This document shows positions 11,632 through 35,219 of a DNA stretch of 64,000 bases, piece by piece. The stretch's first letter is position 1; each line of letters begins with the position of its first letter. A model generated the notes under the pieces. That model made no database searches and was not told where the DNA came from. It saw nothing but the letters and a program-made list of their open reading frames with translations. Origin of the DNA: Candidatus Omnitrophota bacterium. Lineage in GTDB: Bacteria > Omnitrophota > Gorgyraeia > S143-82. The stretch is taken from assembly GCA_015494465.1 (NCBI GenBank), contig WGBD01000001.1:116477-180476 (forward strand), given 5' to 3'. Both the position numbers and the translations under genes were made by a program.

Positions 11632-11967
11632 TTAATACCTCACGCACACAGCCACCGCGTACTCGTCGGTGTGGGATATAGAGACATCGTACTGCCCAAG
11701 TGGAGAATCCACCACCGGCCTGCCCGAATCCATCCGGGAAACCACTATCTTCCGATAAGGCAGGGGGATATCCAGCGTCTTTATCAGGGCCTCCTTGGCA
11801 GCGAACCTGCCCGCGAGGAACTGATATCGCCTCTTCCCCAAAAGGGCCTCGCTAAGCCTCAATTCCTCCTCGGAAAAGACCCTGCGCAGGAACCTCTCCC
11901 TCCAGCGCCTAACCACCCGTTCCACCTTGGACACCGAGACTATGTCCACACCGACCCTCAACTGCAT
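11632..11967 (-). CDS. acpS: holo-[acyl-carrier-protein] synthase
   Basis: MQLRVGVDIVSVSKVE...FAAKEALIKTL...ISHTDEYAVAV, typical AcpS, 111 aa. Confidence 0.8.
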   Translation of the reverse strand: MQLRVGVDIVSVSKVERVVRRWRERFLRRVFSEEELRLSEALLGKRRYQFLAGRFAAKEALIKTLDIPLPYRKIVVSRMDSGRPVVDSPLGQYDVSISHTDEYAVAVCVRY

Positions 11968-13640
11968 CGACTTGGCCTCCAGTCCAGCATCTCCAACCGG
12001 GCCTCCTGCCAGCCATTATAACAATTCACCCTCGGACTTGCCACCAAATCTATCTTCTCCGCCCGCTCGATCCCCTCTACACGATCTGCCATACTAAATC
12101 CAACTACCGGAATACTCGTCTGCCCATCGGAGACCCAGAACTTCACCGTATCCCGGGACAGCCTGCGCACATCCGAGCGTATACGCAGCCCCGGAAAGAG
12201 AAACCGGGGAGGAGGATTGCCTTCTCCAAATGGAGCCAGCGATTCCATTGCAGATATGAGGGAGAAACTCAACATATCCAGACGCAATCGCCCGTCCAGA
12301 TCCATTACCGGGCGGGCATCCTTCAGTTCCTCCTTGGCCAGGGCATCGAGACAGTCGTGGAGGTCGTCGAGGAACCTCTTCTCCACCTCAAATCCCGCCG
12401 CCAATCCGTGCCCCCCAAACTCCAGAAGATACCTCTCACAGCGGGAGAGGGCATTGGTGATGTGGAAGTCTCCAAGTGAACGCGCAGATCCTCGGCCAGA
12501 GTCTCCATCCAAGGCAACTACCAGCGCCGGCATACCAAAATTGTCCACCAGTTTGGAAGCGACTATCCCCACCACCCCCGGATGCCATCCTTCTTCGGCA
12601 ACCAACAGGATGGACCTGCCCTGCGAGACCTGTTCCCGGGCTATCTCCATTGCCCGCCTCAATATATCCTCCTGCACCCGCTGTCTCTTGTCGTTGTATC
12701 CACACAACTCCTCTGCCATCCTCTTCGCGGATTCCTCTTTATCGGCTATCAGGAGGTCAAAGGACCTCCTCGCAGAATACATCCTCCCTGCGGAGTTTAT
12801 CCTCGGCCCCAAGACGAACCCTATTGACCGCACGGTGGGTCTTGAGAGCCGGGAGGCCTCCAACAGGGCCTTTAACCCCATCCGAGGCGAGGACGATATT
12901 GCAGGCAGCCCGTGGGCAACGATGATGCGGTTCTCGTCCAGAAGGGGAACCACATCTGCCACCGTGCCAAGTGTGGCTAGATCCAGAAATCTTACCCTAT
13001 CACCCAGGAGGTATTCGGCGATCTTATAAGCCACCCCTACGCCGGACAGGTCCTTATTGGGATAGGAACAGCCCTTCTGCTTGGGATTCACGATAGCGTC
13101 CGCAGGGGGCAGTTCCTCACCGGGAAGGTGGTGATCGGTTATCACCACATCTATCCCCTTGGACTTTAGATAAGCAACCCCCTTCACCGCCCTTATCCCG
13201 CAGTCAACGGTTATCACCAAAGAAGGATCCGGGCAGGCTTCCAAGGCGGAGGCAATCCCCTTCTCGCTCAGGCCGTATCCGTGGGCGTTCCTGTCGGGGA
13301 TAAACACGACCGCATCTCCGCCCAACTCCCGCACTAGTTCGTACATAATCACCGAGGCAGTGATACCGTCCACATCGTAATCACCGTAGATGAGGACCTT
13401 CGCCCCCAGCTGGCAGTGGCGTCTTATCAGTGCGGACGCAACCTCAACCCCCAGCATCAACTCCGGAGGATAGAGATAGTCCAGCGACGGGTTCAGAAAG
13501 CGCATAGCCTCGGTAGGGCCGGTTATCCCCCTCCTCACCAGGACATGGGCTATCAGGGGATGGAGCCCCAGGGCGGACTCTATCTCCTTGCGCTTGGCAG
13601 AATCCACCCTAGCCAGCCTCCAGCGATAGCGCATCACCAC
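11958..13640 (-). CDS. recJ: single-stranded-DNA-specific exonuclease RecJ
   Basis: DHH family motifs (IYGDYDVDGITAS, VVITDHH, GGHGLAAG) plus the DHHA1 region, 560 aa. Confidence 0.85.
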   Translation of the reverse strand: MVMRYRWRLARVDSAKRKEIESALGLHPLIAHVLVRRGITGPTEAMRFLNPSLDYLYPPELMLGVEVASALIRRHCQLGAKVLIYGDYDVDGITASVIMYELVRELGGDAVVFIPDRNAHGYGLSEKGIASALEACPDPSLVITVDCGIRAVKGVAYLKSKGIDVVITDHHLPGEELPPADAIVNPKQKGCSYPNKDLSGVGVAYKIAEYLLGDRVRFLDLATLGTVADVVPLLDENRIIVAHGLPAISSSPRMGLKALLEASRLSRPTVRSIGFVLGPRINSAGRMYSARRSFDLLIADKEESAKRMAEELCGYNDKRQRVQEDILRRAMEIAREQVSQGRSILLVAEEGWHPGVVGIVASKLVDNFGMPALVVALDGDSGRGSARSLGDFHITNALSRCERYLLEFGGHGLAAGFEVEKRFLDDLHDCLDALAKEELKDARPVMDLDGRLRLDMLSFSLISAMESLAPFGEGNPPPRFLFPGLRIRSDVRRLSRDTVKFWVSDGQTSIPVVGFSMADRVEGIERAEKIDLVASPRVNCYNGWQEARLEMLDWRPSRCS

Positions 13641-14524
13641 TTCCCCGTTCTTACATACTCGCCGGCGTGATACCCCGCAACACAGCCTTGACCAACCGCC
13701 TTGGCCAGTTGGAACGGCGCCCCGGTCACATCTCCGGCAGCGAATATGCCCTTTACACTGGTGCGCTGGTTGGTATCCACCACGATAAACTTCATACTCA
13801 CCGGATCCAACTGGATGCCCAGTTGCATCGCCAACTCGTAGGCCCCTCTTGAGCCCAACTCTATAAAGACCCCATCCACCGGGATCTCACCTTCGGAGAG
13901 AACCAGAGATTCCACCTTCTCCGTCCCCTTTATCTCCTTTACCTCGGCGGGCAGGACCTCAACACCCTTGTCCTTAAGCTCGTCCAATCTCTCCCCCGAG
14001 GCCTCCAGAGAGGGCCACATCAGATAGACCTTCCGGGCAAACCGGGTAAGGAGTTCGCTTGCCCGAAGGGCAGCACTACCTCCCCCTATTACTGCAACCA
14101 CCTTTCCCCGGAAGAACATACAATCGCAATCCGCACAATAACTAACACCCCTGCCCAGAAACTCCTTCTCACCGGGCACATTCAGCCTCTCGTGCCTCAT
14201 CCCCGGGGCCATAACCAACGCCCGACACAGGACTTGCTCCTTTTCCCCTAATATCAGAAAACCGCCATCCTTGATCTCCACATCCACCACATCCTCTTCC
14301 AGAAACTCCACCCCCAACTCCTTCGCCTTCTCCCTGCTATTGATCAACAACTCCTGTCCCGATATCGGATAGGAGAGGGAGAGGTAATTGTCTATGTGGG
14401 CGTTCCAGAGATTGCTGGCCTCCAACCTGCCGAAGACCAGGACCTTTGACCTGCGACTGGCATGGATACTTGCCTGCAGGCCGGCAGGCCCCGATCCCAT
14501 TATCACTACCTCTGTCTCCTTCAC
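13634..14524 (-). CDS. thioredoxin-reductase-like NAD(P)/FAD-dependent oxidoreductase
   Basis: VVIMGSGPAGLQASIHA (FAD GxGxxG), VAVIGGGSAAL (NADPH site) and CADCD at the redox-active position. Confidence 0.65.
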   Translation of the reverse strand: MKETEVVIMGSGPAGLQASIHASRRSKVLVFGRLEASNLWNAHIDNYLSLSYPISGQELLINSREKAKELGVEFLEEDVVDVEIKDGGFLILGEKEQVLCRALVMAPGMRHERLNVPGEKEFLGRGVSYCADCDCMFFRGKVVAVIGGGSAALRASELLTRFARKVYLMWPSLEASGERLDELKDKGVEVLPAEVKEIKGTEKVESLVLSEGEIPVDGVFIELGSRGAYELAMQLGIQLDPVSMKFIVVDTNQRTSVKGIFAAGDVTGAPFQLAKAVGQGCVAGYHAGEYVRTGKW

Positions 14525-15210
14525 GAGTTCACCTCCTGAGGATACTCTATCTTCCTTATCACCAGTGTATAAGGCAATATCGGGATCGCCCCTGCCACCC
14601 TCACCGGCAGGCGCTTATCCCGGGATACCCACAACCTTATCTTCGCCGGCCGGGTAAAGACCTCCCAGGTGTCGAACACCCCTACGTGAGTGCTCATCTT
14701 CCCACCATCGCGCACCATCACCTCGTAACTGCCGGTTGGCAGGTTGACCTCCTTGATGGCATCCACCCCCCGGAAAAACGACTTCAGTATGACCAAGAAT
14801 ACGTTGTCCAGCGGTCCTTTTCCCTTCAGTACCTGCTCTCCGTCTCCTTCCTTTATCACCCGCACCTGCCCCTTCTCGGGATAGTAGATCTCCTCTATCC
14901 GTTCGTCCCTGCCCATGTACCTGACCTGTCGCCTTACCCTGATGGGGACGAGGGTCTGGGGATCCGCGAAGATATCCTCGGTATCCCTTAACTGGGGCGT
15001 TATCACCCTCACCCTTATGTGCCACAGGGGCCTATCCTCACCCTCCAGTGTGGTCATACCGAGGTCCTCTATCCAGGCCTTACCAATGCGAAACATACCC
15101 AACTTCACATCGTAAACCAACCTGGGCAGGGCCCCAATCCTATCCGCAAAGGATACCGTCCCCCACATCAGCGCAAGGATCCACCCAAGGGCAAGAAGCC
15201 TAAGGCCCAT
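14521..15210 (-). CDS. hypothetical secreted protein (DUF3108-like?)
   Basis: N-terminal signal peptide MGLRLLALGWILALMWGTVSFA; no catalytic motifs. Confidence 0.4.
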   Translation of the reverse strand: MGLRLLALGWILALMWGTVSFADRIGALPRLVYDVKLGMFRIGKAWIEDLGMTTLEGEDRPLWHIRVRVITPQLRDTEDIFADPQTLVPIRVRRQVRYMGRDERIEEIYYPEKGQVRVIKEGDGEQVLKGKGPLDNVFLVILKSFFRGVDAIKEVNLPTGSYEVMVRDGGKMSTHVGVFDTWEVFTRPAKIRLWVSRDKRLPVRVAGAIPILPYTLVIRKIEYPQEVNS

Positions 15211-17276
15211 CGCACCCCCTTTATCGCCAAAAAGACCCCCACTGATACCGCCAATCCCCAGAGAAAAGACCTCACCGCGGTCTTCCTATCCAAGGCCTTC
15301 GCCACTGCCCTATAGGCAGAAAAACAACCCGGCAGTAGGAACAATAGCACCATCAGGTCAGGAGAGGATATCCCATAGGCAGGGAACCTCATCCCCCGGA
15401 AGACCACCTCCACCGCCAAGACCAATTCCCTTGCCCACAAGCCAAACACCAGGGCCAGGAGATCAAGACCCGCAAGATCCCCCACCTTTACACTGTCCAA
15501 CCACCCGCCTATGGGGGTGTAGGTCTTCACCGCCCACAGGACCAGAGAGACTCCCAGAAACACACCTGCCACCTTCCGGGCGTACCCGAAGGCGTGATAG
15601 CAACCCTGCTCCAGAGCGGAGATCAGAGGGACCCACCTCAAGGCAGGCAGGGCAGTTATAGAAGGCGCTTCCAACGAGCGGGCACCGATTATCCCCTTAA
15701 AGAGCCGGGCAAACAGGGCAGTGTAGATCAACGAGGCCAAGATTAGAGAAAAGAGCCAACCAGTGGCCTCCCAGAAGGGAAGACTAACGAACAACACGAA
15801 GGCAAACACCACCCACACCCCAAGGCAGTTCCCCATGGGCAGGGCCATCGTCAGGGCGGTCCGGTCCCTTCCCTGAAGGAGCCTGCCCGCCAGCTCCACT
15901 GCGGGTATAGAACAGCCCAGATTGTGGAGCAACGGGACCAGAGAGACCCCGTGGAACCCAAAGAGGTGCAGGACGGGGTCCAAGGCAAAGGCTATCTTGT
16001 ACATCAAGTGGCTCTCGTGTAACAAGGTCTGGAAGAAAAAGAAGACAAACGAACTCAAGACAAACATCAGCAGTATCCCCAAAAAGAAGACCCCCCCTTG
16101 CACATACAAAGGTACTCCCCGGAGGCCCCCTATCAAGTGCAGGAGCCACATACCGGCCTTTACCGCCCCGCCCACGGAAAGGGCAAGACCGTAAAGCCAA
16201 CCTAAAAGTACGAGCCCCCAAAATAACCTGCCGACTACCTCCCGGGCAAAGGCCCTATCCTGCTTGCTCTCCTCCAGGACCCCCCTCACCAGGGCCAACC
16301 TCCTATCAAATACGCACTCCTCAAGCGACCTGCCGGTGAGGTGCCGACACCGCTCTTCACAGAAACGCCGTCCCTCTATCAACCTCTCCCGCACCTGAGG
16401 GTTCTTGAAGAATACCAAGGCATCCTGTTCCGATTCAAAGACCTTCACTACAACCCCGTCGAGAGGATAGACTATGCTGCACTCGCCTTCGGGTATCTCG
16501 CCTTTCACCCTCAACAGGCACTCCTCCAACGGAAACTCCAGAGGAAGCGAAAAGCGCACCTCCCCCGGGCCCTTTTCCAGAGACGCCAAGACCGCATCCA
16601 TTCCATAACCCCTCGCGGAAGAGACATAAACCACCTCAACCCCCGTCAACTCCCGGATCCTGCGGGCATCGTACCTGCTCAAGGACCCGTTTACCGCTAA
16701 GACGACACGCTTGCCGAGATCAACCAGATAGTGCACCAGAAGGAGATCCCTTTCAAGTGTCTCCTCTCTACCCAAAACGACTATCCAGTCGTAACTGCCC
16801 TCCAAGGCCAGCCTTAATCCCACCTCTTCGTACACCGACCAGGGAGGATCGGACATAACCGAAGGCAGGACGGAAAAGCGGATCCTCTTGTGCCTCCATA
16901 TGGTCTGCCCCACGAGGATAGGGGCCAAGGTCCCCTTGCGGACTTCCTCCTCGATCCCCCCACACACCTTAGAGATAAGGGCCCGTTTGCCTGCCCCGGC
17001 GAGGCCCAACACCGCTATCTCCAAGTAGACCTCCACATCCTCTTCAACGAATATGCGATCCAAGAGACCCCGTCCGACGATAACCTTACTACCGTTGACT
17101 ATTACCGAAAAGGGCCCGTTGGCAGAGAACCTATTCGTTATCACCACTCTGCTCCCCGGCAGGATCCCCAAACCGATAAGCCTGCACTGGGCCTCTCTAC
17201 CGCAGTCGAACTCCACCACCTTGAGTGGAACACCCACCGGTGCCTGTTTGAGTGGCAAACGGGATCCCATGGTCAT
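15168..17276 (-). CDS. FeoA-FeoB-like fusion protein with a degenerate G-domain (ferrous-iron-transporter-like membrane protein)
   Basis: N-terminal FeoA/SH3-like block (LKVVEFDCGREAQCRLIGLGILPGSRVVITNRF...GSKVIVGRGLLDRIFV). Next is a P-loop-like GLAGAGKRALIS that lacks the Ser/Thr and clear G3/G4 motifs. The C-terminal polytopic domain is homologous to the FeoB Gate region (LGCSIPAVELAGRLL...MALPMGNC); compare the true FeoB at 31460..33454 (GCNVPAIMATRTL...IPFMSCSARL). The start was moved to Met30 of the track ORF (17276). Confidence 0.55.
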   Translation of the reverse strand: MTMGSRLPLKQAPVGVPLKVVEFDCGREAQCRLIGLGILPGSRVVITNRFSANGPFSVIVNGSKVIVGRGLLDRIFVEEDVEVYLEIAVLGLAGAGKRALISKVCGGIEEEVRKGTLAPILVGQTIWRHKRIRFSVLPSVMSDPPWSVYEEVGLRLALEGSYDWIVVLGREETLERDLLLVHYLVDLGKRVVLAVNGSLSRYDARRIRELTGVEVVYVSSARGYGMDAVLASLEKGPGEVRFSLPLEFPLEECLLRVKGEIPEGECSIVYPLDGVVVKVFESEQDALVFFKNPQVRERLIEGRRFCEERCRHLTGRSLEECVFDRRLALVRGVLEESKQDRAFAREVVGRLFWGLVLLGWLYGLALSVGGAVKAGMWLLHLIGGLRGVPLYVQGGVFFLGILLMFVLSSFVFFFFQTLLHESHLMYKIAFALDPVLHLFGFHGVSLVPLLHNLGCSIPAVELAGRLLQGRDRTALTMALPMGNCLGVWVVFAFVLFVSLPFWEATGWLFSLILASLIYTALFARLFKGIIGARSLEAPSITALPALRWVPLISALEQGCYHAFGYARKVAGVFLGVSLVLWAVKTYTPIGGWLDSVKVGDLAGLDLLALVFGLWARELVLAVEVVFRGMRFPAYGISSPDLMVLLFLLPGCFSAYRAVAKALDRKTAVRSFLWGLAVSVGVFLAIKGVRWALGFLPLGGSLR

Positions 17277-17284
17277 AACGATGC

Positions 17285-17457
17285 CTAACCCGCCCTGAAG
17301 AACCTGTCCTTGCTCCCAAAAGGAGAGACCTTTACCTCCACCTTCTTCCCGCACTTGGGACAAAACCCAACGAATGCATCCTTCTTCCGGTTCAGATATA
17401 TCCTCTGATAGACCCTACAGCAGTCAAAGATTATACCCAAAAAGGGGGACCTCTTCA
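17285..17457 (-). CDS. small zinc-ribbon protein (57 aa), hypothetical
   Basis: Hand translation gives MKRSPFLGIIFDCCRVYQRIYLNRKKDAFVGFCPKCGKKVEVKVSPFGSKDRFFRAG, with CC...CPKCG Cys pairs. It fills the panB/FeoAB-like gap and abuts the FeoAB-like start. Confidence 0.3.
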
Positions 17458-17464
17458 TAGGATT

Positions 17465-18259
17465 CTATTTATAGACGTTCTCCTCGCCCGGGAAGATGCC
17501 GGAACGGACCTCCTCCACGAACCTCTTTACCGCAGAGGAGACGACCTCGTAACCGTTGGCATACCTGCGCACGAACTTGGGGAGGATCCGGTCGTACAAA
17601 CCCACGATATCCGAGAATACCAAAACCTGACCGTCGCAGAACCTCCCCGCACCTATCCCTATAACCGGGACATCAACCGCATCGGCTATGTCCGCACCCA
17701 ACGGCTCAGGCACGCACTCCAGCACTATCGCAAACACCCCCGCCTCCTCCAAGGCCTTGGCCTGACCGATAAGGGCCTTTGCCTCCTCTATCCCCCTGCC
17801 CTTTACTCTATATCCCTCGGAGAAGACACTGCTCTGGGGGGTAAGACCGATGTGGCCCATCACCTGAATACCTGCATCTACCATCCTGTCTATTGCCGAA
17901 AGCACTGCATCCGAGGCCCCCTCTACCTTCACCGCGCTTGCCCCTGCAAACTTGACGAATGCCCCTGCATTGCGCACCGCAGACTCAACCGACTCCTGAT
18001 AACTCATAAACGGCATGTCCGCCACCACGAACCCCTCGGGCGCCCCCCGTCTGACCGCCTTGACGAACACCATCATCTCCTCAACCGTCACCGGAAGGGT
18101 GGAATCGTAGCCCAACAGCGTCATGGCCAGAGAATCTCCTACCAATATGATGTCTACCCCCGCCTCCGCACAGACCTTCGCAGAGACATAATCGTAGGCA
18201 CTCACCATCACTATCGGGGACTTACCCTTGCGCGCTTTAATCTCTTTCACCGTCAACAT
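17465..18259 (-). CDS. panB: 3-methyl-2-oxobutanoate hydroxymethyltransferase
   Basis: From internal Met MLTVKEIKARKGKSPIVMVSAYDY...ILVGDSLAMTLLGYDST...VVADMPFMSY, canonical PanB. Confidence 0.85.
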   Translation of the reverse strand: MLTVKEIKARKGKSPIVMVSAYDYVSAKVCAEAGVDIILVGDSLAMTLLGYDSTLPVTVEEMMVFVKAVRRGAPEGFVVADMPFMSYQESVESAVRNAGAFVKFAGASAVKVEGASDAVLSAIDRMVDAGIQVMGHIGLTPQSSVFSEGYRVKGRGIEEAKALIGQAKALEEAGVFAIVLECVPEPLGADIADAVDVPVIGIGAGRFCDGQVLVFSDIVGLYDRILPKFVRRYANGYEVVSSAVKRFVEEVRSGIFPGEENVYK

Positions 18260-18897
18260 AGCCACCGCAAAATCACCTCCGCCACAGGGAATATCACCAT
18301 TCCCACCACACCTGTCATCAACAACACCAAGGCCAATATAAATCCGACCCCTTCCCACTTTCTGTACTCCACATAAAGCGACGGCGGAAGCAGGGCACTC
18401 AATATGTGCCCACCGTCGAAGCCCGGTATGGGCAGGAGATTGAACAGGGCGAGAACCACATTCACCCCGCCGAGGGAAAGGAACAGGACCGACGCCGAGG
18501 GATTAAAACTAAACCTGGCCATCTTGCAGAATACAAAGGCAAGGAGGAGATTTGCCGAGGGACCGGCAAGGGAACACAGGGCTACGCCGAGCCTCAGATT
18601 CCTAACCCGGGTAAAGTTGAGCGGATTTATGGGCACCGGTTTGGCATAGCCTATAAGGTAAGGCGAACGAAGAAGGAACAACACCGCAGGCAGGATAACA
18701 CTGCCCACCGGATCCAGATGGGCCAACGGATTGAGGGTCAACCTACCCCGCCGATACGCGGTGTCATCGCCCAAGAGGTAGGCGACATAACCGTGGGCCA
18801 ACTCGTGGACTACCACTGAATACAGGAACAAAACCCCAAATATTACATACAATAATAACCCCATACCAACTCCTGCGCCTATCCATCCCAAACCCAC
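18253..18897 (-). CDS. site-2 protease (M50) family membrane metalloprotease
   Basis: HELAHG (HExxH) in a TM helix, and the LDG motif FDGGHIL. Confidence 0.75.
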   Translation of the reverse strand: MGLGWIGAGVGMGLLLYVIFGVLFLYSVVVHELAHGYVAYLLGDDTAYRRGRLTLNPLAHLDPVGSVILPAVLFLLRSPYLIGYAKPVPINPLNFTRVRNLRLGVALCSLAGPSANLLLAFVFCKMARFSFNPSASVLFLSLGGVNVVLALFNLLPIPGFDGGHILSALLPPSLYVEYRKWEGVGFILALVLLMTGVVGMVIFPVAEVILRWLC

Positions 18898-18932: not shown

Positions 18933-20087
18933 ATGAATGAACATCCCACCGAGGCCTCCAGACTCAAGCGCGAATTGGAACGCCTGCAGAGGCAACTCAC
19001 CATATTCTACGAGATATCCAACGCGATGCTCACCACCCTCAACCTCGACGAGATACTCTACATCATACTCACCGGGATAACATCCCACGCAGGGATAGGA
19101 CTGAACCGGGCAATGCTCTTTCTGGTCAACCGGGCAAAAAATACCTTAGAAGGGGTGATGGGCATAGGCCCGGGCTCGGGAGAGGAGGCCCGACGAATAT
19201 GGCAGTTTATAGAGACCTCCCGGATGGACCTAAACGACCTCATTGCCCAGTACAAGCACTCCCGGAGGGTAGCGGACTCAAAACTTAACCAACTGGTAAA
19301 AAACTTTGAGATCTCCATCTCCCCGGAGAACGGAATCCTCGCCAAGGCAGTGCTGGACGGGACCCTAAAGCACATCCGTCCACCCGAATCCGAACACTAC
19401 CGCAACGATCCGCTGATAAAGGAGTTGGGCAGTGAGGAGTTCGTGGTGGTGCCCCTAAAGGCCCACGATCGAATCGTCGGGGTAATACTCGCCGACAACA
19501 TCTTCAGCGGACACCCCATAACTGACGAGGACATAAAGATGCTAACGATGTTCGCCAATCAGGCAGGACTGGCCATAGAAAACTCCCTCTTATACCAGCA
19601 GGCTTTACTGCGCGCCCACACCGACTCCCTCACCCAACTCTGGAACCACGGCTACTTCCAGCACAAACTGGATGAACTCCTCAAAGAGCATCAGGAAAAG
19701 CAACATCCCTTATCCCTACTTCTGATAGACATCGACGACTTCAAACGCTACAACGACGAACACGGCCACCAGAAGGGCGACGAGATACTCAAGAACATCG
19801 CCAAGATACTAAAGGACCACTGCCGGAATATCGACCTGCCCTGCCGATACGGAGGAGAGGAGTTCGCCCTCATCCTACCCGACACCGGCAAGTCCGAGGC
19901 CCTAAACATTGCGGAAAGATTGCGCAAGACCGTAGAAGAGGCAGGCCTGCCTACGCTGAGCATCGGCGTAGCCACCTTCCCCGATGACGCCACCACCAAA
20001 GAGGAACTGATAGAACTGGCAGACGCTGCCCTGTATCGGGCAAAGCGCTTGGGAAAGAATCAGGTACAGAACCCTGATTCTCAATAG
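18933..20087 (+). CDS. GAF-domain diguanylate cyclase (GGDEF)
   Basis: N-terminal GAF-like region; C-terminal LTQLWNHGYF...RYGGEEFALILP (GGEEF active site), 384 aa. Confidence 0.8.
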   Translation: MNEHPTEASRLKRELERLQRQLTIFYEISNAMLTTLNLDEILYIILTGITSHAGIGLNRAMLFLVNRAKNTLEGVMGIGPGSGEEARRIWQFIETSRMDLNDLIAQYKHSRRVADSKLNQLVKNFEISISPENGILAKAVLDGTLKHIRPPESEHYRNDPLIKELGSEEFVVVPLKAHDRIVGVILADNIFSGHPITDEDIKMLTMFANQAGLAIENSLLYQQALLRAHTDSLTQLWNHGYFQHKLDELLKEHQEKQHPLSLLLIDIDDFKRYNDEHGHQKGDEILKNIAKILKDHCRNIDLPCRYGGEEFALILPDTGKSEALNIAERLRKTVEEAGLPTLSIGVATFPDDATTKEELIELADAALYRAKRLGKNQVQNPDSQ

Positions 20088-29201: not shown

Positions 29202-30314
29202 TCAATCCTTCTCCAAGATACTACGGTATATCTTATCATAAAGGGATAACATCCGCTGAAAGGAAAAATCCCCTGCCCGCTCCTGCAGGGACCTCCTCAT
29301 CGCTTCCCAGTCCTGCCTGGAACGCCTGAAGACCGCGTAAAGGCCGTCCAACCGCTGAACCCCTTCGGATACATCCCTAACACTTCCAATGATCAACCGT
29401 CCCGGGCCTTCGCCTACATCCCTTAAGGCGACCCCAGAACCAGCTATCGGCACGCCCCAGCACATCGCCTCTAAGACCACCATCGGCAGGCCCTCCCTCA
29501 AGGAGGGCAGGAACAGACAGTCAAGGTTCCTATACACCGCCTCCATCTCCTCAAAGGGCACCTTACCCAAGAACTCTATTCTATCCCCCAACCCCTCCTT
29601 TGCCACCCGAGACCTTGCCCAGTCCCTCAAGGAGCCGTCGCCCACTATCACCGCCCTGACTGGACCGTCCCTATGCCGGCGCATCCACGAGGACAACACA
29701 TCTATCACATAGGCAAAGTTCTTCTCCCGTTCCATCCTCCCGATGAAGCCCACGGTAAAGGTATCGTCCTCTTCGGGGAGGGAACCTACTTTGCACTCTA
29801 CCGCGTTGGGGATGTAATGGACCTTTGCCTTGGGGATCCTCCACCTTGAGAACTCCTCCAGCAGGTTTAGAGAGACCCCGGCTATGGCGTCTGCTGTGCG
29901 GATGAGCAGTTTATCCAGAGTTTCGTATACCCACAACCTGGCGCTCGCAGATGTCCAGCCATGGAGGGTAAGCACCCACCTCACCGAGGCAGGTCTTGAG
30001 AGCATTGCGTAGAAGTTGGACTTGTAGTTGTGGCTGTGGACGATCTGCACGCCGAGGTCGCGAATTGCCTTCCGCAGTCGGGCAATGGCCTGCAGATCCA
30101 TCTGAGATTTGGTCGGTACCCACAGGGCCTCCACGCCTTGGCCCCTTGCGAACGAAAGGACCTCGTTATCCTCGGGATCCCTGTCCATCACCCCGAGGAT
30201 CATACGATAACTCCGAGACAGTCCTCTGCATATCTGGACCGCCACCCGCTCTGCCCCAAACACCCTGCGCGCACTGATGAGGTGCAGTACGGTCAATCGG
30301 GTATCCGCCATGTA
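29202..30314 (-). CDS. family 4 (GT-B) glycosyltransferase
   Basis: C-terminal EGLPMVVLEAMCWGVPI (GT4 E-x7-E region). Confidence 0.75.
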   Translation of the reverse strand, partial: YMADTRLTVLHLISARRVFGAERVAVQICRGLSRSYRMILGVMDRDPEDNEVLSFARGQGVEALWVPTKSQMDLQAIARLRKAIRDLGVQIVHSHNYKSNFYAMLSRPASVRWVLTLHGWTSASARLWVYETLDKLLIRTADAIAGVSLNLLEEFSRWRIPKAKVHYIPNAVECKVGSLPEEDDTFTVGFIGRMEREKNFAYVIDVLSSWMRRHRDGPVRAVIVGDGSLRDWARSRVAKEGLGDRIEFLGKVPFEEMEAVYRNLDCLFLPSLREGLPMVVLEAMCWGVPIAGSGVALRDVGEGPGRLIIGSVRDVSEGVQRLDGLYAVFRRSRQDWEAMRRSLQERAGDFSFQRMLSLYDKIYRSILEKD

Positions 30315-31456
30315 TACCTTCTCTCTACCAGTTCCCGCCCCGCCCTTCCCATCTCCTGACGCAGTTGCCCATCTTTCAGGAGAATACACACCCGACGGGC
30401 GAACTCTTCGGGATCGTCCGCGATAACGATGTTTCTGTCTGGAGTGTAATCTATCCCCTCCGCACCCAAGCTGGTGGAGACCACCGCCCTACCGGCAGAC
30501 ATCGCCTCCAGTATCTTCAACCTGCTCCCACCGCCTATCCTCAACGGCACCACCACCACCGCGGAGCGGTAAACGTAATCCCGCACATCCCCCACTGCCC
30601 CGGTGATAACCACATCCTCGCCCTCATACCTGCGCAACCTCGCGGATGGCGAACGGCCTACCACATAGAATCTCACCCCCGGGCACTCCCTTTTTACGAG
30701 GGGCCAGATCTCGGAGAGGAAGTAGAGGACGCCGTCTTCGTTGGGTAGCCAGTCCATAGAACCGACGAATACCAGGTCCCTCTCCTGACCGGTATAGGGC
30801 CGATAGGCCCAGAAGTCCCCGTCCACGCCGTTGGGCACCACCTTGACCCTTTCCGGAGACAGTCCCATTTGCAAAAACAGGTCCCTGTCCTCCTCGGAGA
30901 CCGTCCACACCTCGTTCATCTCCCTGCTAATGTTCGCCTCCCACCTGCGCAAGAGATTCGCGTGATGTCCTGCAATAGCAGAAAGGGGCCAGACTAACTC
31001 CTCACCCGCCCGGGCGGATATCACCCATTCCACATTGTGGGCGTCCATACGCAAGAGCGCTCTGTTGGAGAGATCCTTCAAGAGCAAACCGTACTGGGCG
31101 GTGTGGAGGTGATCGAAGTGGATCACCTCGGGAGCAAACTCGTCTAGGAGAGAAAGTAATCGCCTCAGGAGCGGACCCAGACGATACTTGCCCAGCACGA
31201 AGGGGTAACCCAGCGCGAATGACAGGATGCCCTTCAGGGTGGCAGTTGGCCCCACCTTTACCGCCTCCGTTCTGGCTAGACGGAGTTCCTCTTTGAGACG
31301 GAGGAGATCAGCGGTGTCCTCGGGGGAAAAACACAGAGAAAGTACGGCGGTTTCCCCTCTCTGGGATATCAAACGAAGCAGGTGATAGGTGCGAATCTTC
31401 CCCCCGGTATCTAAGGGATAAGGGGGACGAGGCGTCACGACCAAAGTGCGAGGCAT
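30293..31456 (-). CDS. family 4 (GT-B) glycosyltransferase
   Basis: GGSRLKILEAMSAGRAVVST motif; N-terminal Glyco_trans_4-like domain. Confidence 0.75.
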   Translation of the reverse strand: MPRTLVVTPRPPYPLDTGGKIRTYHLLRLISQRGETAVLSLCFSPEDTADLLRLKEELRLARTEAVKVGPTATLKGILSFALGYPFVLGKYRLGPLLRRLLSLLDEFAPEVIHFDHLHTAQYGLLLKDLSNRALLRMDAHNVEWVISARAGEELVWPLSAIAGHHANLLRRWEANISREMNEVWTVSEEDRDLFLQMGLSPERVKVVPNGVDGDFWAYRPYTGQERDLVFVGSMDWLPNEDGVLYFLSEIWPLVKRECPGVRFYVVGRSPSARLRRYEGEDVVITGAVGDVRDYVYRSAVVVVPLRIGGGSRLKILEAMSAGRAVVSTSLGAEGIDYTPDRNIVIADDPEEFARRVCILLKDGQLRQEMGRAGRELVERRYTWRIPD

Positions 31457-31459
31457 AAC

Positions 31460-33454
31460 CTAAAACCAGATCCTCCCCACCTGATACACCAACACGCTCA
31501 ATATCCAGCCCACCGCTATCGTGTATAGCGTAGAGATAACGGCCCAGCGCCAGCCCAACTCCTTTTTAATCACTGCAATAGTGGCCACGCAGGGGATGTA
31601 GAGGAGGGTCATAACCAAAAAAGACAGCGCGGATAGTCGAGAGAAGTAGAAGGGCAGGACGGTCCTCAGAGCACTCTCCTTCCCGCCTGACAGAAGCGTC
31701 CCCAAGGTGCCCACCACGACCTCCTTGGCCACCACGCCGAACACCAGTGCCACCGCTGCCTGCCAGAAGCCAAACCCCGCCGGGGAAAACACCGGGGCCA
31801 TCGCAGTCCCCATCCTGCCCAGAAGGGAATCCTTGGCACCGTACTCCACCCCCGGCGGAAGGGACGCCAGGAGCCACACCAGTATCACCGCTGCCAATAT
31901 CACCGTCCAGGCCTTGCGTATGAACTCGTAGGTCCTTATCCATGAGAACTTGAGCACCACCCGGGCCGATGGGACCCTGTAAGGTGGCATCTCCATTATG
32001 AGGAGGCTATCCTGGCCCTTGAACAGGATACGGTTCAGGACCATCGCGGATACCACTCCCACCCCGATTCCCAGGAGATAGAGGCCAAAGACCACCAGAT
32101 TCTCCTTCCCCGGGAAGAAGACCGAGGCAAAGAGGACATACACCGGCAGACGGGCAGAGCAACTCATAAACGGTATTATAAGGGTGGTGATTATCCTGTC
32201 CTTCTCGTTGGACAGGGTGCGGGTGGCCATAATCGCAGGGACATTGCAACCAAATCCTATGAGCATCGGGATAAAGGACTTTCCGTGCAGACCCAAGCGG
32301 TGCATAAACTTGTCCATTATAAACGCAGCCCGGGCAAGGTAGCCCGAGTCCTCCAGCACCGAGATGAAGAGATTCAGGAAGAATATGTTGGGCACGAATA
32401 CGAGTATGGATCCTACCCCGTCCAGCACCCCATCGGTCAGGAAGGAGACCAACAACTCCGGTGCACCCAAAGAGGAGAGGAATACCCCGAGCCAACCGCT
32501 CAGGGCGGACATAGCGGATTCTATTGCGTCCACGAACGGCTGAGCCACTTTGAACACACCGGTGAACACCCCGTACATAACCAAAAGGAACAACGGTATC
32601 CCGACGATGCGATTGGTGATGACCCTATCTACATACTCGGTAAAGGCCAGTCTCTGATTGAGGTCCACCACCCTGCGCAGGGACTCCCTCAACAACGCCT
32701 TGATAAACCCATACCTGCGTTCTGCTATGAAGACCGCCAGGTTGTGGGAATACTCCCCACGCAGGTCCTCCCGCGCCCTTGCAAGGTGCTCCCGCACCTC
32801 AGGGGAAAGCATTGCAATAGCGTCCTCCTCCCCCTCCAGGAAGGCCAAGGCCAAGAACCGATTGAGGCCCATCCGCTCGGCCTCTTGGAGAAAGGACTCC
32901 ACCTCCGGCCCGTAATCAACCCGCAGTAGCCCCACAGAAGGATGCGCCTCCAGGCAGACCGCTATGGCCCTCTTCAGGTCATCTATGCCCTTGCCCTGAT
33001 TGCCCACCGTCTTGACGACCCCGCAGGCACCGACTATCCGGGCAAAGACCCTCTCGTCCAGATCCGCGCCCAACTTCTCCATCTCGTCCCACATGTTCAG
33101 GGCCACCACCACCGGCAGGCCCATCTCCCTTATCTGGACCAGGAGGTAGAGGTTCCGCTCGAGGTTGGAGGCGTCTATGACCACGACGACGAGGTCGACC
33201 TCCTCCTTCAAGAGAAAGTCCCGGGCAATCTTTTCGTCTAAAGAGAAGGCGCTCAGTCCGTATATACCCGGCAGGTCCACGAGGCGGACCTTCTCCTCCC
33301 CCACCAGAAAGGTCCCTTCCACCAACTCCACCGTGGTGCCGGGCCAGTTCCCGACCTGCTCCTCCCCGCCGGTTAGGGCATTGAAGATGGTGGTCTTGCC
33401 TGCATTGGGATTGCCTGCCAGTACGACCGTCTTCATGTCTAACTCCCTGCTCAA
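31460..33454 (-). CDS. feoB: ferrous iron transport protein B
   Basis: Intact G-domain with G1 GNPNAGKTT, G3 DLPG and G4 NMWD, plus Gate motifs; 664 aa. Confidence 0.9.
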   Translation of the reverse strand: MSRELDMKTVVLAGNPNAGKTTIFNALTGGEEQVGNWPGTTVELVEGTFLVGEEKVRLVDLPGIYGLSAFSLDEKIARDFLLKEEVDLVVVVIDASNLERNLYLLVQIREMGLPVVVALNMWDEMEKLGADLDERVFARIVGACGVVKTVGNQGKGIDDLKRAIAVCLEAHPSVGLLRVDYGPEVESFLQEAERMGLNRFLALAFLEGEEDAIAMLSPEVREHLARAREDLRGEYSHNLAVFIAERRYGFIKALLRESLRRVVDLNQRLAFTEYVDRVITNRIVGIPLFLLVMYGVFTGVFKVAQPFVDAIESAMSALSGWLGVFLSSLGAPELLVSFLTDGVLDGVGSILVFVPNIFFLNLFISVLEDSGYLARAAFIMDKFMHRLGLHGKSFIPMLIGFGCNVPAIMATRTLSNEKDRIITTLIIPFMSCSARLPVYVLFASVFFPGKENLVVFGLYLLGIGVGVVSAMVLNRILFKGQDSLLIMEMPPYRVPSARVVLKFSWIRTYEFIRKAWTVILAAVILVWLLASLPPGVEYGAKDSLLGRMGTAMAPVFSPAGFGFWQAAVALVFGVVAKEVVVGTLGTLLSGGKESALRTVLPFYFSRLSALSFLVMTLLYIPCVATIAVIKKELGWRWAVISTLYTIAVGWILSVLVYQVGRIWF

Positions 33455-33509: not shown

Positions 33510-35219
33510 TTAGGAATAGACCTCGACCGTGGTTATGGCGTTGTGGCGCTTGCGGAATCGGAGAACACGCTCTAAGAGTTCCCTGCGCAAAGAGGGCTCT
33601 CCCTTCCCCATCTGCAGGTCGAGGTTCCAGTAGTACTGGTCGCGCTTCTTCTTCTCCACCGGCTGATAGGGGCCGTAGACCTGACAGGTGCTTCCGGGGT
33701 GGGCCTTTATGAGGTCTGCTATTTCCTCGTGCAGGCGCCGGGCCTTCTCCAGTGCCTCGGAGGAACGCGGAGCCCTTATGGAGATGCAGACCAACTCCCC
33801 ATAAGGTGGCAGGTTTGCCTTGCGGAGGGTCTCGTCGTAGCGCTTTAGATAGGACTCCACATTCGCTATCTCGGGGAATCTCGTCCGGACATACAGGCGT
33901 CGACAGTGATGGCTGGCGGAGGCAATAAAGTCCACCGCAAGTCTCGGAGAATAGAACTTGTCCACACCCAGGACATTGTCCACGCCCAGGAGTAACCCGA
34001 TGTCGTACCTGCCCTCTACCCCCTGCCAGTGGCGGAGGACATCAACCGTCTCCATCAGTCTTTTGCGGATTACCTGTTCCCAGCGCTCCACCCCCATAGA
34101 CGAGATGCGCACCGACAGGGACCCGCACCTCAGACACTTGCCGTCCCAAACGACAGTGCCATTGCATCCCGGACAGAACAGCCGATCCCCACCATCCCTA
34201 CGGATCAGCATGTAAGGACGGTCGCAGCGCTCACACCTCAGGACCTCCTTGCAGGCAGAACAGCGCAACAATTTGGCATATCCCTTGCCGAGTAGGAATA
34301 TTGCGCACCTTCCCCCAGTTGCGCTGACCTTCTTCATCTCCTCCTCGACGAAAGCAGGTATCAGGGGATGGGAGCGCGCATCCACACCTACGATCTCGCA
34401 GTCAGGACTCGGAGATACCCTGTGAAAGCAGAACTCTCCCGCGGAGTGCCTTGCCCTTATCTCCATCGCCTTTATCAGACTATACTTCGGCGTAACCTCC
34501 TGCCTGTGGATGTCCAGGTAGGCCAGTTCCACCAAGACCAATTCCGGGGAGAGGATAGGCCAGAAGGCCAACTGGCGGGTACCTATCAATATGGCAGGGG
34601 CACGACTCAGCCCCTCAATGATACGCCTCAAGACCGACTTTCCTATCCCCTGATAAAACACGAAGACCTCTTTATCGGGAAACCTCCCGCTGAGGAGTTT
34701 CTGCAATTCCCAGGCCCGTTCCTTGTTATCGGTTATCCAGAGGACCTGACGCCAGTCTTTTTTGGAGATCCTTTCTATCCCCTGTTCCCTGAAGTGGACC
34801 AAAGATCCGGAGACGGACCGGACGATGGCCCTGCCTCCGCCTCCCCGGGCATCGTCGGGTATAAATCGATCCCACCTGCCCGACCTCAACTCCTTGGGCA
34901 GGCCCGCGACCGCCATCTCCCCCGGACCAACCCAAAAGGCATCCGCACACTCCTTCAGATAGGCGATGTCCCGCTCCGAATACCACCTTCCCCCCTCGTC
35001 GAGTAGGCGGAGCACATCTCTGGTCCTTCCCCTCCACTCCCCACCCAACCTATCCACGATGCCCAGGACCCGCCTCTTCCCAAAAGGCACCCAGATCCTG
35101 TTGCCCGTCCGGAGAGGCAGGTGGCTCACATAGTCAAAGACGGTGTTTAGGGGTACATCTATCAGAGCGGTGATATGGACGGGAAGGTCGTTGGCCTCAG
35201 ATAGTTCCCCACCAGCCAT
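33510..35219 (-). CDS. PriA-like primosomal protein N' homolog with degenerate helicase motifs
   Basis: The PriA 3'-DNA-binding N-terminus (VPLNTVFDYVSHLPLRTGNRIWVPFGKRRVLGIV) and the C-terminal CxxC Zn-binding insert (CSACKEVLRCERCD...CPGCNG...CLRCGS) are present. Walker A GxxGSGKT is replaced (ITDNKERA) and no DEEH Walker B is recognisable. Confidence 0.55.
   Translation of the reverse strand: MAGGELSEANDLPVHITALIDVPLNTVFDYVSHLPLRTGNRIWVPFGKRRVLGIVDRLGGEWRGRTRDVLRLLDEGGRWYSERDIAYLKECADAFWVGPGEMAVAGLPKELRSGRWDRFIPDDARGGGGRAIVRSVSGSLVHFREQGIERISKKDWRQVLWITDNKERAWELQKLLSGRFPDKEVFVFYQGIGKSVLRRIIEGLSRAPAILIGTRQLAFWPILSPELVLVELAYLDIHRQEVTPKYSLIKAMEIRARHSAGEFCFHRVSPSPDCEIVGVDARSHPLIPAFVEEEMKKVSATGGRCAIFLLGKGYAKLLRCSACKEVLRCERCDRPYMLIRRDGGDRLFCPGCNGTVVWDGKCLRCGSLSVRISSMGVERWEQVIRKRLMETVDVLRHWQGVEGRYDIGLLLGVDNVLGVDKFYSPRLAVDFIASASHHCRRLYVRTRFPEIANVESYLKRYDETLRKANLPPYGELVCISIRAPRSSEALEKARRLHEEIADLIKAHPGSTCQVYGPYQPVEKKKRDQYYWNLDLQMGKGEPSLRRELLERVLRFRKRHNAITTVEVYS

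Follow-up and report, generated by a model that had tools for sequence, protein, structure and literature searches.

Introduction

FeoB is the main Fe2+ importer of prokaryotes. The slow GTPase that this transporter carries could be there for energy, as a gate or as a sensor, and in model systems transport is abolished when the G motifs are mutated. The canonical proteins of Escherichia coli, Pseudomonas aeruginosa and Streptococcus thermophilus share one domain order, in which a G-fold is followed by a helical domain and then by a Gate-type membrane domain. In Bacteroides fragilis, FeoA lies N-terminal to NFeoB within a single polypeptide and there is no FeoC (PMC8980893). This fusion has intact G motifs (e.g., GNPNCGKT) and hydrolyses GTP, and its FeoA moiety stabilises the GTP-bound NFeoB (PMC8980893). 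Such FeoA-FeoB fusions belong to Bacteroidetes and Firmicutes.

What would be left of such a protein once its G motifs were gone? Among eukaryotes, domains in which the G-fold stays under selection and the motifs are lost are called pseudoGTPases, and the fold is presumed to be reused as a scaffold or for allostery. They include the pG1 and pG2 domains of p190RhoGAP as well as CENP-M, and have reportedly been classified by Stiegler and Boggon. Heterodimeric ABC exporters, a transport family that tolerates a dead nucleotide site with a regulatory or structural role, offer an analogy only, being of unrelated fold and family (PMC7756269). Literature searches turned up no FeoB or other prokaryotic transporter reported to have a pseudoGTPase domain, and nothing relevant on GTP-independent or degenerate FeoB. 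The literature that joins Omnitrophota to FeoB deals with magnetosome gene clusters.

This article describes FeoAB*, a FeoB paralog of Candidatus Omnitrophota which resembles canonical FeoB in its domain order and the B. fragilis protein in its fused FeoA, but whose motifs G1–G4 are degenerate. It was found in a 64-kb stretch of DNA from an uncultured bacterium of this group, analysed as a whole and called the window below.

The feoAB* Gene and Its Domains

The gene occupies positions 15168..17276 of the minus strand, and encodes a FeoA/pseudo-G/helical/membrane fusion of 702 residues, followed by the stop codon. The ORF as listed runs over 15168..17363 on the same strand and gives 731 residues from a TTG; the ATG at 17276 was taken as the start on the basis of homolog N-termini and of an identical database protein of 702 residues (P0001). 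Orthologs are present in eight other protein clusters.

The FeoA (SH3-like) domain comes first (residues 9–81; 17034..17252, minus strand, as are all coordinates that follow). On the 731-residue ORF, the Pfam FeoA profile (PF04023) matches residues 37–107 over profile positions 2–73 of 74 (45.9 bits, cut-off 23; E = 6e-12), and the FeoA structure 3e19 of the PDB also matches the N-terminus (E = 0.003). Next comes the pseudo-G domain (residues 85–239; 16560..17024), where FeoB_N (PF02421) scores 31.6 bits (cut-off 27) over positions 2–154 of 156. The helical, GDI/S-like domain (residues 240–346; 16239..16559) was placed from the AF2 model and Foldseek along with a weak FeoB_Cyto match (E = 0.048, under its cut-off). 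The remainder is a FeoB-type membrane (Gate) domain (residues 347–702; 15171..16238), recognised by Pfam Gate (PF07670; 31.1 bits, cut-off 29.6), by BLASTP and by TIGR00437 feoB, which matches residues 426–620 with 91.5 bits against an equivalog cut-off of 315.65. In BLASTP, FeoAB* and the window's canonical FeoB align from end to end at 25% identity. The initial annotation had proposed just this architecture of FeoA, degenerate G-domain and FeoB membrane domain, and had made it depend on a FeoA match at the N-terminus; both the profiles and the motif comparison uphold it. Among the four profiles it had named, FeoA, FeoB_N and Gate exceed their cut-offs, and FeoB_C (PF07664) was not detected in the search with Pfam and NCBIfam profiles.

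Motifs and Fold of the Pseudo-G Domain

Motifs were compared across the FeoAB* family, the window's canonical FeoB and 11 other FeoBs. At G1, the P-loop remnant GLAGAGKR (residues 91–98; 16983..17006) stands in place of GNPNxGK[ST]: the Lys is kept, the Ser/Thr has become Arg, and the Asn residues that canonical FeoB has here for its K+-activated site are missing. G2 reads GTLAP instead of GxTVE, without the conserved Thr, G3 reads VLPS instead of DLPG, and G4 reads AVNGSL instead of NMxD, without NxxD; for G5, FeoB has no strict consensus. The earlier reading of a P-loop without Ser/Thr, and of a protein with no clear DxxG or NKxD, is therefore borne out, and the intact GTP site that was to count against it is not what the alignment gives.

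The loss is family-wide, since the Ser/Thr of G1, the Thr of G2, the Asp and Gly of G3 and the NxxD of G4 are missing in all nine members. GxxGxGK is retained in seven of the nine, with G91, G96 and K97 nearly invariant, so that Mg-independent binding of a nucleotide or an anion is possible for the window's FeoAB*. Across the family the P-loop position also reads GFEGVGKE (P0006 and P0007), GFVDIKLH (P0008) or CNTFDKDK (P0021), and in the last two proteins the P-loop is gone altogether. Outside the family, 142 of the 157 nearest FeoB representatives carry G1, G3 and G4.

The AF2 model of FeoAB* has a mean pLDDT of 82 and is helical over residues 240–346. In Foldseek, its best PDB matches are without exception NFeoB; target TM-scores lie at 0.70–0.83 among the 50 matches listed, and alignments of about 270 columns cover both the G-domain and the helical domain of NFeoB. 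This fold match is not fully independent because the alignment behind the model included canonical FeoBs. As far as sequence and model can tell, the G-domain keeps its fold but has lost the residues for contacts with Mg2+, the gamma-phosphate and guanine. Family-wide motif loss together with purifying selection makes “pseudo-GTPase” a fair label at this level: a retained G-fold, lost motifs and purifying selection, the three marks by which pseudoGTPases are told from their sequences, are all found in FeoAB*. It differs from p190RhoGAP and CENP-M in that these are eukaryotic signalling or scaffold proteins.

Scattered degenerate G-domains also occur in further FeoB-like representatives (P0087, P0065, and P0068), which suggests that G-domain degeneration may extend beyond the FeoAB* clade. 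The gene contexts of P0087 and P0065 contain no DUF3108 and have nothing in common with that of FeoAB*.

FeoA Domain, Linker and Membrane Domain

The FeoA domain carries a family-specific segment, FDCGREAQC, in which Cys25 is invariant and Cys31 is present in eight of the nine members. The linker between FeoA and the pseudo-G domain is very short, about 6–8 residues against the 35–44 of the B. fragilis fusion, and the P-loop is found at residue 91, whereas its median position among 23 canonical FeoA-FeoB fusions is 115. Another family-specific cysteine, Cys105, sits beside the P-loop.

In the membrane domain, Cys455, Cys484 and Cys651 are invariant throughout the family, within the motifs GC(S/P), PFxxC and YPxC, and align with the GC, PFxSC and YxPC positions of canonical FeoB. 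The PFxxC cysteine corresponds to C429 of P. aeruginosa FeoB and the YPxC cysteine to C675, whose change to Ser blunts the GTPase activity stimulated by Fe2+ (PMC4847171). Also invariant are D433, H437, H442 and E617, acidic or His residues that canonical FeoB has as well, and the LHxFGxHG segment of FeoB is retained. Judged by alignment, the hallmark FeoB residues are kept in this domain.

Distribution and Selection

The family is tiny, with nine protein clusters, all from MAGs and, where named, all Candidatus Omnitrophota. A word-index search found eight of these clusters, and an exhaustive HMM search added only P0021 ahead of the first canonical FeoBs, the family amounting to four representatives among 1.8 billion. 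Scanning GTDB genomes yielded two Omnitrophota MAGs (three contigs) and one distant match at 22% identity, and scanning JGI metagenomes yielded no member of the family. No product name is given in the databases for any of these proteins.

Reading frames are intact in all nine clusters, whose identity ranges from 87% down to that of P0021, which diverges far more (about 22–25% in the pseudo-G and membrane domains). Mean family identity is 75% for FeoA, 42% for the pseudo-G domain and 33% for the membrane domain; the corresponding dN/dS values, from two close pairs independent of each other, are 0.02–0.03, 0.09–0.10 and 0.11–0.14. By this pattern of strong purifying selection, FeoAB* is a functional, selectively maintained FeoB paralog of a narrow Omnitrophota clade.

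Genomic Context

The genes for M50, panB, a small zinc-ribbon-like ORF, feoAB*, the DUF3108-like protein, the thioredoxin-reductase-like flavoprotein (trxR) and recJ lie head to tail, with gaps of at most 8 nt or overlaps. Because genes are packed in this way regardless of function, adjacency alone is weak evidence. As operon signals, promoter-like and terminator-like sites are not above the shuffled expectation.

Directly downstream of feoAB*, at 14521..15210, lies the gene for a putative exported, all-beta DUF3108-like protein of 229 residues with a signal peptide, which was recognised by Pfam (DUF3108, PF11306; 31.0 bits, cut-off 26), by its context and by alignment. The gene shares 43 nt with the 3′ end of feoAB* and follows it directly in all eight contexts, despite rearrangements on both sides; the arrangement is that of a translationally coupled pair. 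This constant partner was absent from the initial annotation. Structure prediction gives an N-terminal signal-like helix followed by all-beta structure, in a poor model made from four sequences (pLDDT 46). Sequence and profile searches of the PDB returned no match, and the alignment of the partner has no conserved Cys or His pointing to a ligand. DUF3108 proteins have been described as outer-membrane beta-barrels with the YmcC fold (PMC4364669). A role for DUF3108 as a general Feo partner was considered and rejected, the next, more distant Omnitrophota homolog adjoining an M28 peptidase and no Feo gene. For this family of unknown function, the strict coupling to feoAB* is a first testable association.

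Overlapping the DUF3108-like gene by 4 nt, the gene at 13634..14524 encodes a flavoprotein of 296 residues whose thioredoxin reductase (TrxR) fold family is confirmed by Pfam Pyr_redox_2 and by PDB TrxR matches down to E = 1e-42. Its CxxC (CADC) is kept and the HRRxxxR motif for the NADPH 2′-phosphate is missing: in all five orthologs aligned, HRRDGFR of E. coli TrxB is replaced by MWPSLE or IWPQLE. By these sequence marks, it does not qualify as an NADPH-dependent low-Mr thioredoxin reductase. Its gene is adjacent in seven of the eight feoAB* contexts, and absent in the remaining one (L011).

The canonical feoB of the window lies apart, at 31460..33454. Its product reaches 628.8 bits on TIGR00437, and none of the G motifs is missing. 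The flanking genes are priA (55-nt gap) and that of a glycosyltransferase (3-nt gap), so that no feoA is adjacent, and the search for FeoA matches elsewhere in the window found none, leaving the domain in FeoAB* as the only one. The initial annotation had already claimed, and rightly so, that a canonical feoB lies elsewhere in the window with its G-domain intact and without feoA beside it. This paralog also sets FeoAB* apart from the ABC exporters, which have one active site in the same complex, whereas the only candidate for FeoAB* is on a separate protein.

Proposed Mechanism and Alternatives

Tentatively, and with a confidence just short of even, FeoAB* may be viewed as a Feo-type permease for divalent metals that works independently of NTP, its FeoA and pseudo-G domains forming a fixed cap. 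The membrane domain would still import Fe2+ or another soft divalent metal, its opening being freed from control by the GTP/GDP cycle. FeoA, pseudo-G and helical domains would together make up a fixed cytoplasmic cap, which can be likened to the FeoA-stabilised “on” state described for the B. fragilis fusion. The cap would take its state from a non-nucleotide cue, candidates being the thiols of Cys25, Cys31 and Cys105, the metal itself, or the periplasmic or outer-membrane DUF3108-like partner. The flavoprotein without an NADPH motif might keep the FeoAB* thiols reduced, this being the weakest link. Since the TIGR00437 score is far under its cut-off and FeoB_C is undetected, the substrate could also have changed.

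It is rather doubtful that FeoAB* is either a nucleotide-free Fe2+ importer or an obligatory pseudo-enzyme partner, which in a hetero-oligomer would lend its hyper-conserved FeoA domain to the canonical FeoB, itself without one. Were nucleotide-free import true, the FeoB membrane domain would suffice by itself as a permease or channel, and the G-domain would be no more than a dispensable gate; import or partnership, if true, would each bear directly on the role of GTP in Feo transport, a question 30 years old. With its G motifs lost and its fold, FeoA and membrane cysteines kept under purifying selection, FeoAB* amounts to a natural “G-dead” experiment on the need of FeoB for GTP. Should it transport, GTP would be no inherent part of how translocation works; otherwise, FeoAB* would be the first case of a pseudoGTPase regulating a bacterial metal transporter.

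Might FeoAB* then be a non-transporting partner, which hetero-oligomerises with the canonical FeoB or senses metal for it while supplying FeoA in trans, in the way that pseudo-enzymes team up with active paralogs? The canonical gene has no neighbouring feoA, FeoAB* carries the window's only FeoA domain, and feoA or a fused FeoA was present in all Feo operons surveyed (PMC8749426). The slow evolution of the FeoA domain (75% identity versus 33–42%; dN/dS 0.02) is moreover what contact with a slowly evolving external partner would lead one to expect. However, the view is one of 64 kb and a free feoA could be elsewhere in the genome, feoA and feoB are known at separate loci (PMC8749426), and a pure regulator would have no need of the invariant hallmark residues of the membrane domain; on balance such a partner seems unlikely. 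Nor is there much probability that FeoAB* is a binding-competent, hydrolysis-dead switch, whose GxxGxGK anion hole would take a nucleotide or a phosphorylated ligand without Mg2+. The near-invariance of G91, G96 and K97, the seven members out of nine with GxxGxGK and the variable base specificity of FeoB G-domains, for example that of Vibrio cholerae NFeoB (PMC11406355), would all suit such a switch, but P0008 and P0021 have no P-loop and yet keep the whole architecture and gene context, the Thr of G2 and the Asp of G3 and G4 are missing in every member, and in P0006 and P0007 the Lys is followed directly by Glu.

The strong divergence from FeoB (25% identity; 91 versus 315 bits on TIGR00437; no FeoB_C) could also mean that FeoAB* and the DUF3108-like protein form a neofunctionalised carrier of a substrate other than Fe2+, such as another metal or a small organic molecule. 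Strict coupling to DUF3108, a family unrelated to known Feo systems and described as outer-membrane beta-barrels of the YmcC fold (PMC4364669), fits this idea, as does the report of a FeoB paralog probably carrying Mn2+ (PMC8749426). The invariance of the three thiophilic Cys and of the acidic and His residues shared with FeoB nevertheless argues for a soft metal cation, and conserved Cys or His that might suggest a ligand are missing from the DUF3108 partner; on these grounds a new substrate is improbable. As for a decaying, functionless feoAB duplicate, suggested by the lost catalytic motifs and the rarity of the family (four representatives among 1.8 billion), hardly any credence can be given to it: frames are intact in nine clusters, from 87% identity down to P0021, gene context and translational coupling are conserved, and the low dN/dS in every domain is counted here as its refutation.

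The Upstream Four-Cysteine ORF

At 17285..17458, ending 8 nt before the ATG of feoAB*, lies a 57-residue zinc-ribbon-like ORF with four cysteines (CC...CPKC), placed outside the Feo unit from its conservation and context. It is conserved at 72–91%, and CC (13, 14) and CPKC (33–36) are invariant across five loci; its zinc-ribbon matches in Pfam are all under cut-off (best 16.6 bits versus 25). There is no membrane segment, and the profile search gave no FeoC or PF12669 match at E ≤ 1. Like FeoC and the FeoB-associated Cys-rich proteins it is small, contains cysteines and sits beside a feoB-like gene, but it is upstream instead of downstream and is linked to panB. A part as a FeoC-like Feo accessory was rejected, given that the ORF tracks panB when feoAB* is elsewhere and also occurs alone. 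From the initial annotation, its existence, its CC/CPKC cysteines and its upstream position hold, whereas the implied link to Feo does not. At L014 and L015, which share a MAG or sample with the Feo-gene-bearing L007 and L013, the small ORF still accompanies and overlaps panB though feoAB* is located elsewhere, and at L017 it occurs in an unrelated context.

Architecture and Lost G Motifs of the Large Feo-Like Protein

The large Feo-like gene (15168–17276, minus strand) encodes a 702-residue protein in which FeoA, pseudo-G, helical and Gate/membrane domains are fused. Its longest ORF begins at a TTG (17363, 731 residues); the start is placed at ATG 17276, since the N-termini of all homologues and the identical 702-residue database protein P0001 agree. 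Four Pfam domains are found in the expected order: FeoA (E 6e-12, 45.9 bits, cut-off 23), a nearly full-length FeoB_N (31.6 bits, cut-off 27), FeoB_Cyto (E 0.048, below cut-off) and Gate (31.1 bits, cut-off 29.6). FeoA, FeoB_N and Gate each being above cut-off, these domains and a comparison of each motif with those of 12 canonical FeoBs bear out the initial annotation, which had seen a FeoA-FeoB fusion with a pseudo-GTPase domain. In that comparison G1 reads GLAGAGKR where canonical FeoBs have GNPNxGK[ST], G2 is GTLAP, lacking the Thr of GxTVE, G3 is VLPS instead of DLPG, and G4 is AVNGSL instead of NMxD.

By BLASTP, the protein shares 25% identity with the canonical FeoB of the window (E 2e-29), in an alignment that runs from the G-domain through the C-terminus. 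A sequence search of the PDB returns NFeoB and FeoA entries only. The AlphaFold2 model (mean pLDDT 82) finds NFeoB crystal structures as its best Foldseek matches in the PDB, with target TM-scores of 0.70–0.83 over about 270 columns among the 50 matches listed, a fold-level identity to be read knowing that the input alignment of the model held canonical FeoBs. On the NCBIfam feoB equivalog model, whose cut-off is 315.65 bits, the protein scores 91.5 and the canonical FeoB 628.8. Since the protein falls outside this equivalog both by its G motifs and by its score, “FeoB-like” is the correct label.

A Family of G-Dead Homologues Under Purifying Selection

A word-indexed search of 5.8 billion clusters recovered eight family clusters, 36–100% identical to the window protein, followed by canonical FeoBs, none of them stronger than E 1e-17. 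When 1.84 billion representatives were searched exhaustively with a profile, four exceeded 960 bits and canonical FeoBs reached about 220 bits or less, with P0021 as the sole intermediate (285 bits). Where named, the sources are Candidatus Omnitrophota MAGs; no database source names the proteins of this family, and a scan of JGI metagenome contigs gave no match. None of the nine family members keeps the Ser/Thr of G1, the Thr of G2, either the Asp or the Gly of G3, or the NxxD of G4. Among the 157 nearest representatives outside the family, 142 have G1, G3 and G4, and those without them are mostly N-terminally truncated gene calls. A near-identical second 5′ end of the gene, at a contig edge (L008 3469–3828) and in the same MAG (WGAY01) as locus L006, most likely reflects redundancy in the assembly or heterogeneity among strains, not a true second copy.

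Mean pairwise identity and dN/dS, the latter for two pairs (window/L021 and L013/L003, respectively), were obtained domain by domain. FeoA is the best-conserved part (75%; 0.02 and 0.03), followed by the pseudo-G (42%; 0.09 and 0.10), helical (34%; 0.06 and 0.08) and membrane domains (33%; 0.14 and 0.11). By these values, the pseudo-G domain is under no less constraint than the membrane domain, even though its catalytic motifs are lost. The dN/dS values also rule out a decaying duplicate: purifying selection acts on the whole protein.

Gene Neighborhood and the Exported Partner

The gene lies in a dense minus-strand run between 11.9 and 18.9 kb, where seven functionally unrelated genes are crowded into 11958–18897 with overlaps or gaps of at most 8 nt: an M50 peptidase gene (18253–18897), panB (17465 to about 18259), a 57-residue four-cysteine ORF (17285–17458), the large Feo-like gene, a DUF3108-like gene (14521–15210), a thioredoxin-reductase-like (TrxR-like) gene (13634–14524) and recJ (11958–13640). 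Promoter-like and terminator-like sites around the Feo-like gene show no excess over shuffled expectation. In so compact a genome, mere adjacency is weak evidence of common function. Divergent from this string is a gene for a GAF-GGDEF diguanylate cyclase (18933–20087, plus strand), found at the same position in locus L001 (1477–2679).

The initial annotation had linked the pseudo-G paralog to the small zinc-ribbon ORF just upstream; the paralog stands, and the link does not. The ORF encodes a basic four-Cys protein of 57–62 residues (IIFDCCRVYQRIYLN...FVGFCPKCGKK...DRFFRAG), which scores above cut-off with no family in Pfam or NCBIfam and does not match FeoC in either, so that it is discarded as a FeoC. 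It recurs in L001 (4086–4262), L002 (5123–5299), L010 (2997–3176), L011 (635–811), L014, L015 and L017, and usually adjoins the panB stop codon or overlaps it. Where the Feo-like gene adjoins an LMWPc gene instead (L007, L013), the ORF of the same MAG or sample still sits on panB, followed by unrelated genes (L014, L015), and in L017 it has yet another context; these loci rule out a tie to the Feo gene. It is 72–91% identical between genomes whose Feo-like proteins share 36–44%, and still less in L010, where the ORF is 91% identical although the Feo protein is the most divergent. It is treated here as a separate small protein, and such strong sequence conservation suggests a housekeeping role.

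The true partner, overlooked in the initial annotation, lies downstream. Across the eight gene contexts recovered (window, L001, L002, L003/L004, L010, L011, L013 and L021), the only invariant neighbor is an exported DUF3108-like protein encoded directly 3′ of the Feo-like gene, usually overlapping its stop codon by 4–46 nt; in the window it scores 31 bits against the Pfam DUF3108 cut-off of 26. In the P0006/P0007 lineage, the genes upstream and far downstream of the pair differ, so the pair has outlived rearrangements on both sides. A more distant Omnitrophota DUF3108 gene adjoins an M28 peptidase gene, and the link is therefore lineage-specific. Published work describes DUF3108 proteins as beta-barrels of the outer membrane that have a YmcC fold (PMC4364669); the model of the window protein (pLDDT 46) is too poor to check this.

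The TrxR-like gene comes next in seven of the eight contexts, a PEPCK gene taking its place in L011. Its product keeps the redox CxxC (within CADCDC), and the HRRxxxR NADPH motif is absent from all five orthologs aligned. It may resemble the NADPH-independent, ferredoxin-dependent TrxR-like flavoenzymes, and is possibly a disulfide reductase of that type. In the closest relative (L021 4353–5243) the gene is broken into two ORFs, one of 229 and the other of 66 residues, probably by a frameshift or an assembly error.

Proposed Mechanism and the FeoA-Less Canonical FeoB

Canonical Feo systems need GTP binding for uptake, and in the Bacteroides fragilis fusion GTP-bound NFeoB is stabilized by FeoA (PMC8980893). 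Here the nucleotide switch would have been replaced. In the simplest model, FeoA, pseudo-G and helical domains would form a permanently assembled cap without nucleotide cycling, and its trigger would be thiol redox state, metal or the periplasmic partner. Three cysteines are specific to the family: C25 (invariant) and C31 (eight of nine members) in the FeoA domain, and C105 beside the P-loop remnant. It is doubtful that Mg-independent nucleotide binding persists through the kept Lys. GxxGxGK is retained in seven of the nine members, followed by Arg or Glu; the P-loop is wholly lost in P0008 (GFVDIKLH) and P0021 (CNTFDKDK). The membrane domain keeps its hallmarks. Three cysteines (GC(S/P), PFxxC and YPxC), D433 and E617 are invariant in the family and in canonical FeoBs, and H437 and H442 are invariant in the family and largely retained in canonical FeoBs. 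Of these cysteines, the second matches C429 and the third C675 of Pseudomonas aeruginosa FeoB, as judged from published primers, and C675S blunts Fe2+-stimulated GTPase activity there (PMC4847171). The domain would still conduct a soft cation, Fe2+ or one like it, and with these residues shared, a changed substrate seems improbable.

Another reading would make the fusion a pseudo-enzyme partner of the canonical FeoB (31460–33454, minus strand). As first proposed, the latter has an intact G-domain with all motifs and no adjacent feoA, since priA (33510–35219) and glycosyltransferase genes (29202–31456) flank it directly; neither feoA nor feoC lies beside it, nor is there space for one. Searches with phmmer and a purpose-built HMM found no further FeoA-like sequence in the 64-kb window, and according to published surveys every Feo operon examined carries either feoA or a fused FeoA domain (PMC8749426). 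The fusion, having conserved membrane residues of its own, is unlikely to serve in this way, though it may.

Comparison with Known Feo Systems

Fusion involves about 12% of FeoA sequences, mostly in Bacteroidetes and Firmicutes, and the G motifs lost here are intact in those proteins (PMC8980893). The linker to FeoA is also much shorter here: the P-loop falls at residue 91, against a median position of 115 among 23 canonical fusions. Surveys of Feo architecture leave G-dead forms unmentioned (PMC8749426), and full-text literature searches turned up neither a paper combining FeoB with pseudoGTPase nor work on a FeoB that is degenerate or independent of GTP. Since fusions are well known and these searches gave no G-dead FeoB, what is new here is the pseudoGTPase domain together with the DUF3108-like partner. 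Known only from a few MAGs, the protein offers a clean natural case of a G-dead FeoB kept by selection, and it bears on a mechanistic question about FeoB.

Outside this family, P0087 (L022 5001–7481), a FeoA fusion, carries GQPLSGKN and NLPD and keeps NKFD, while P0065 (L023 164–2230) and P0068 carry GDGQSGQV and lack DxPG. Their gene contexts are not alike, and none includes DUF3108. Because these three are degenerate in differing contexts, their sequences hint at more than one origin of G-dead FeoB paralogs, and they may be independent pseudo-G lineages.
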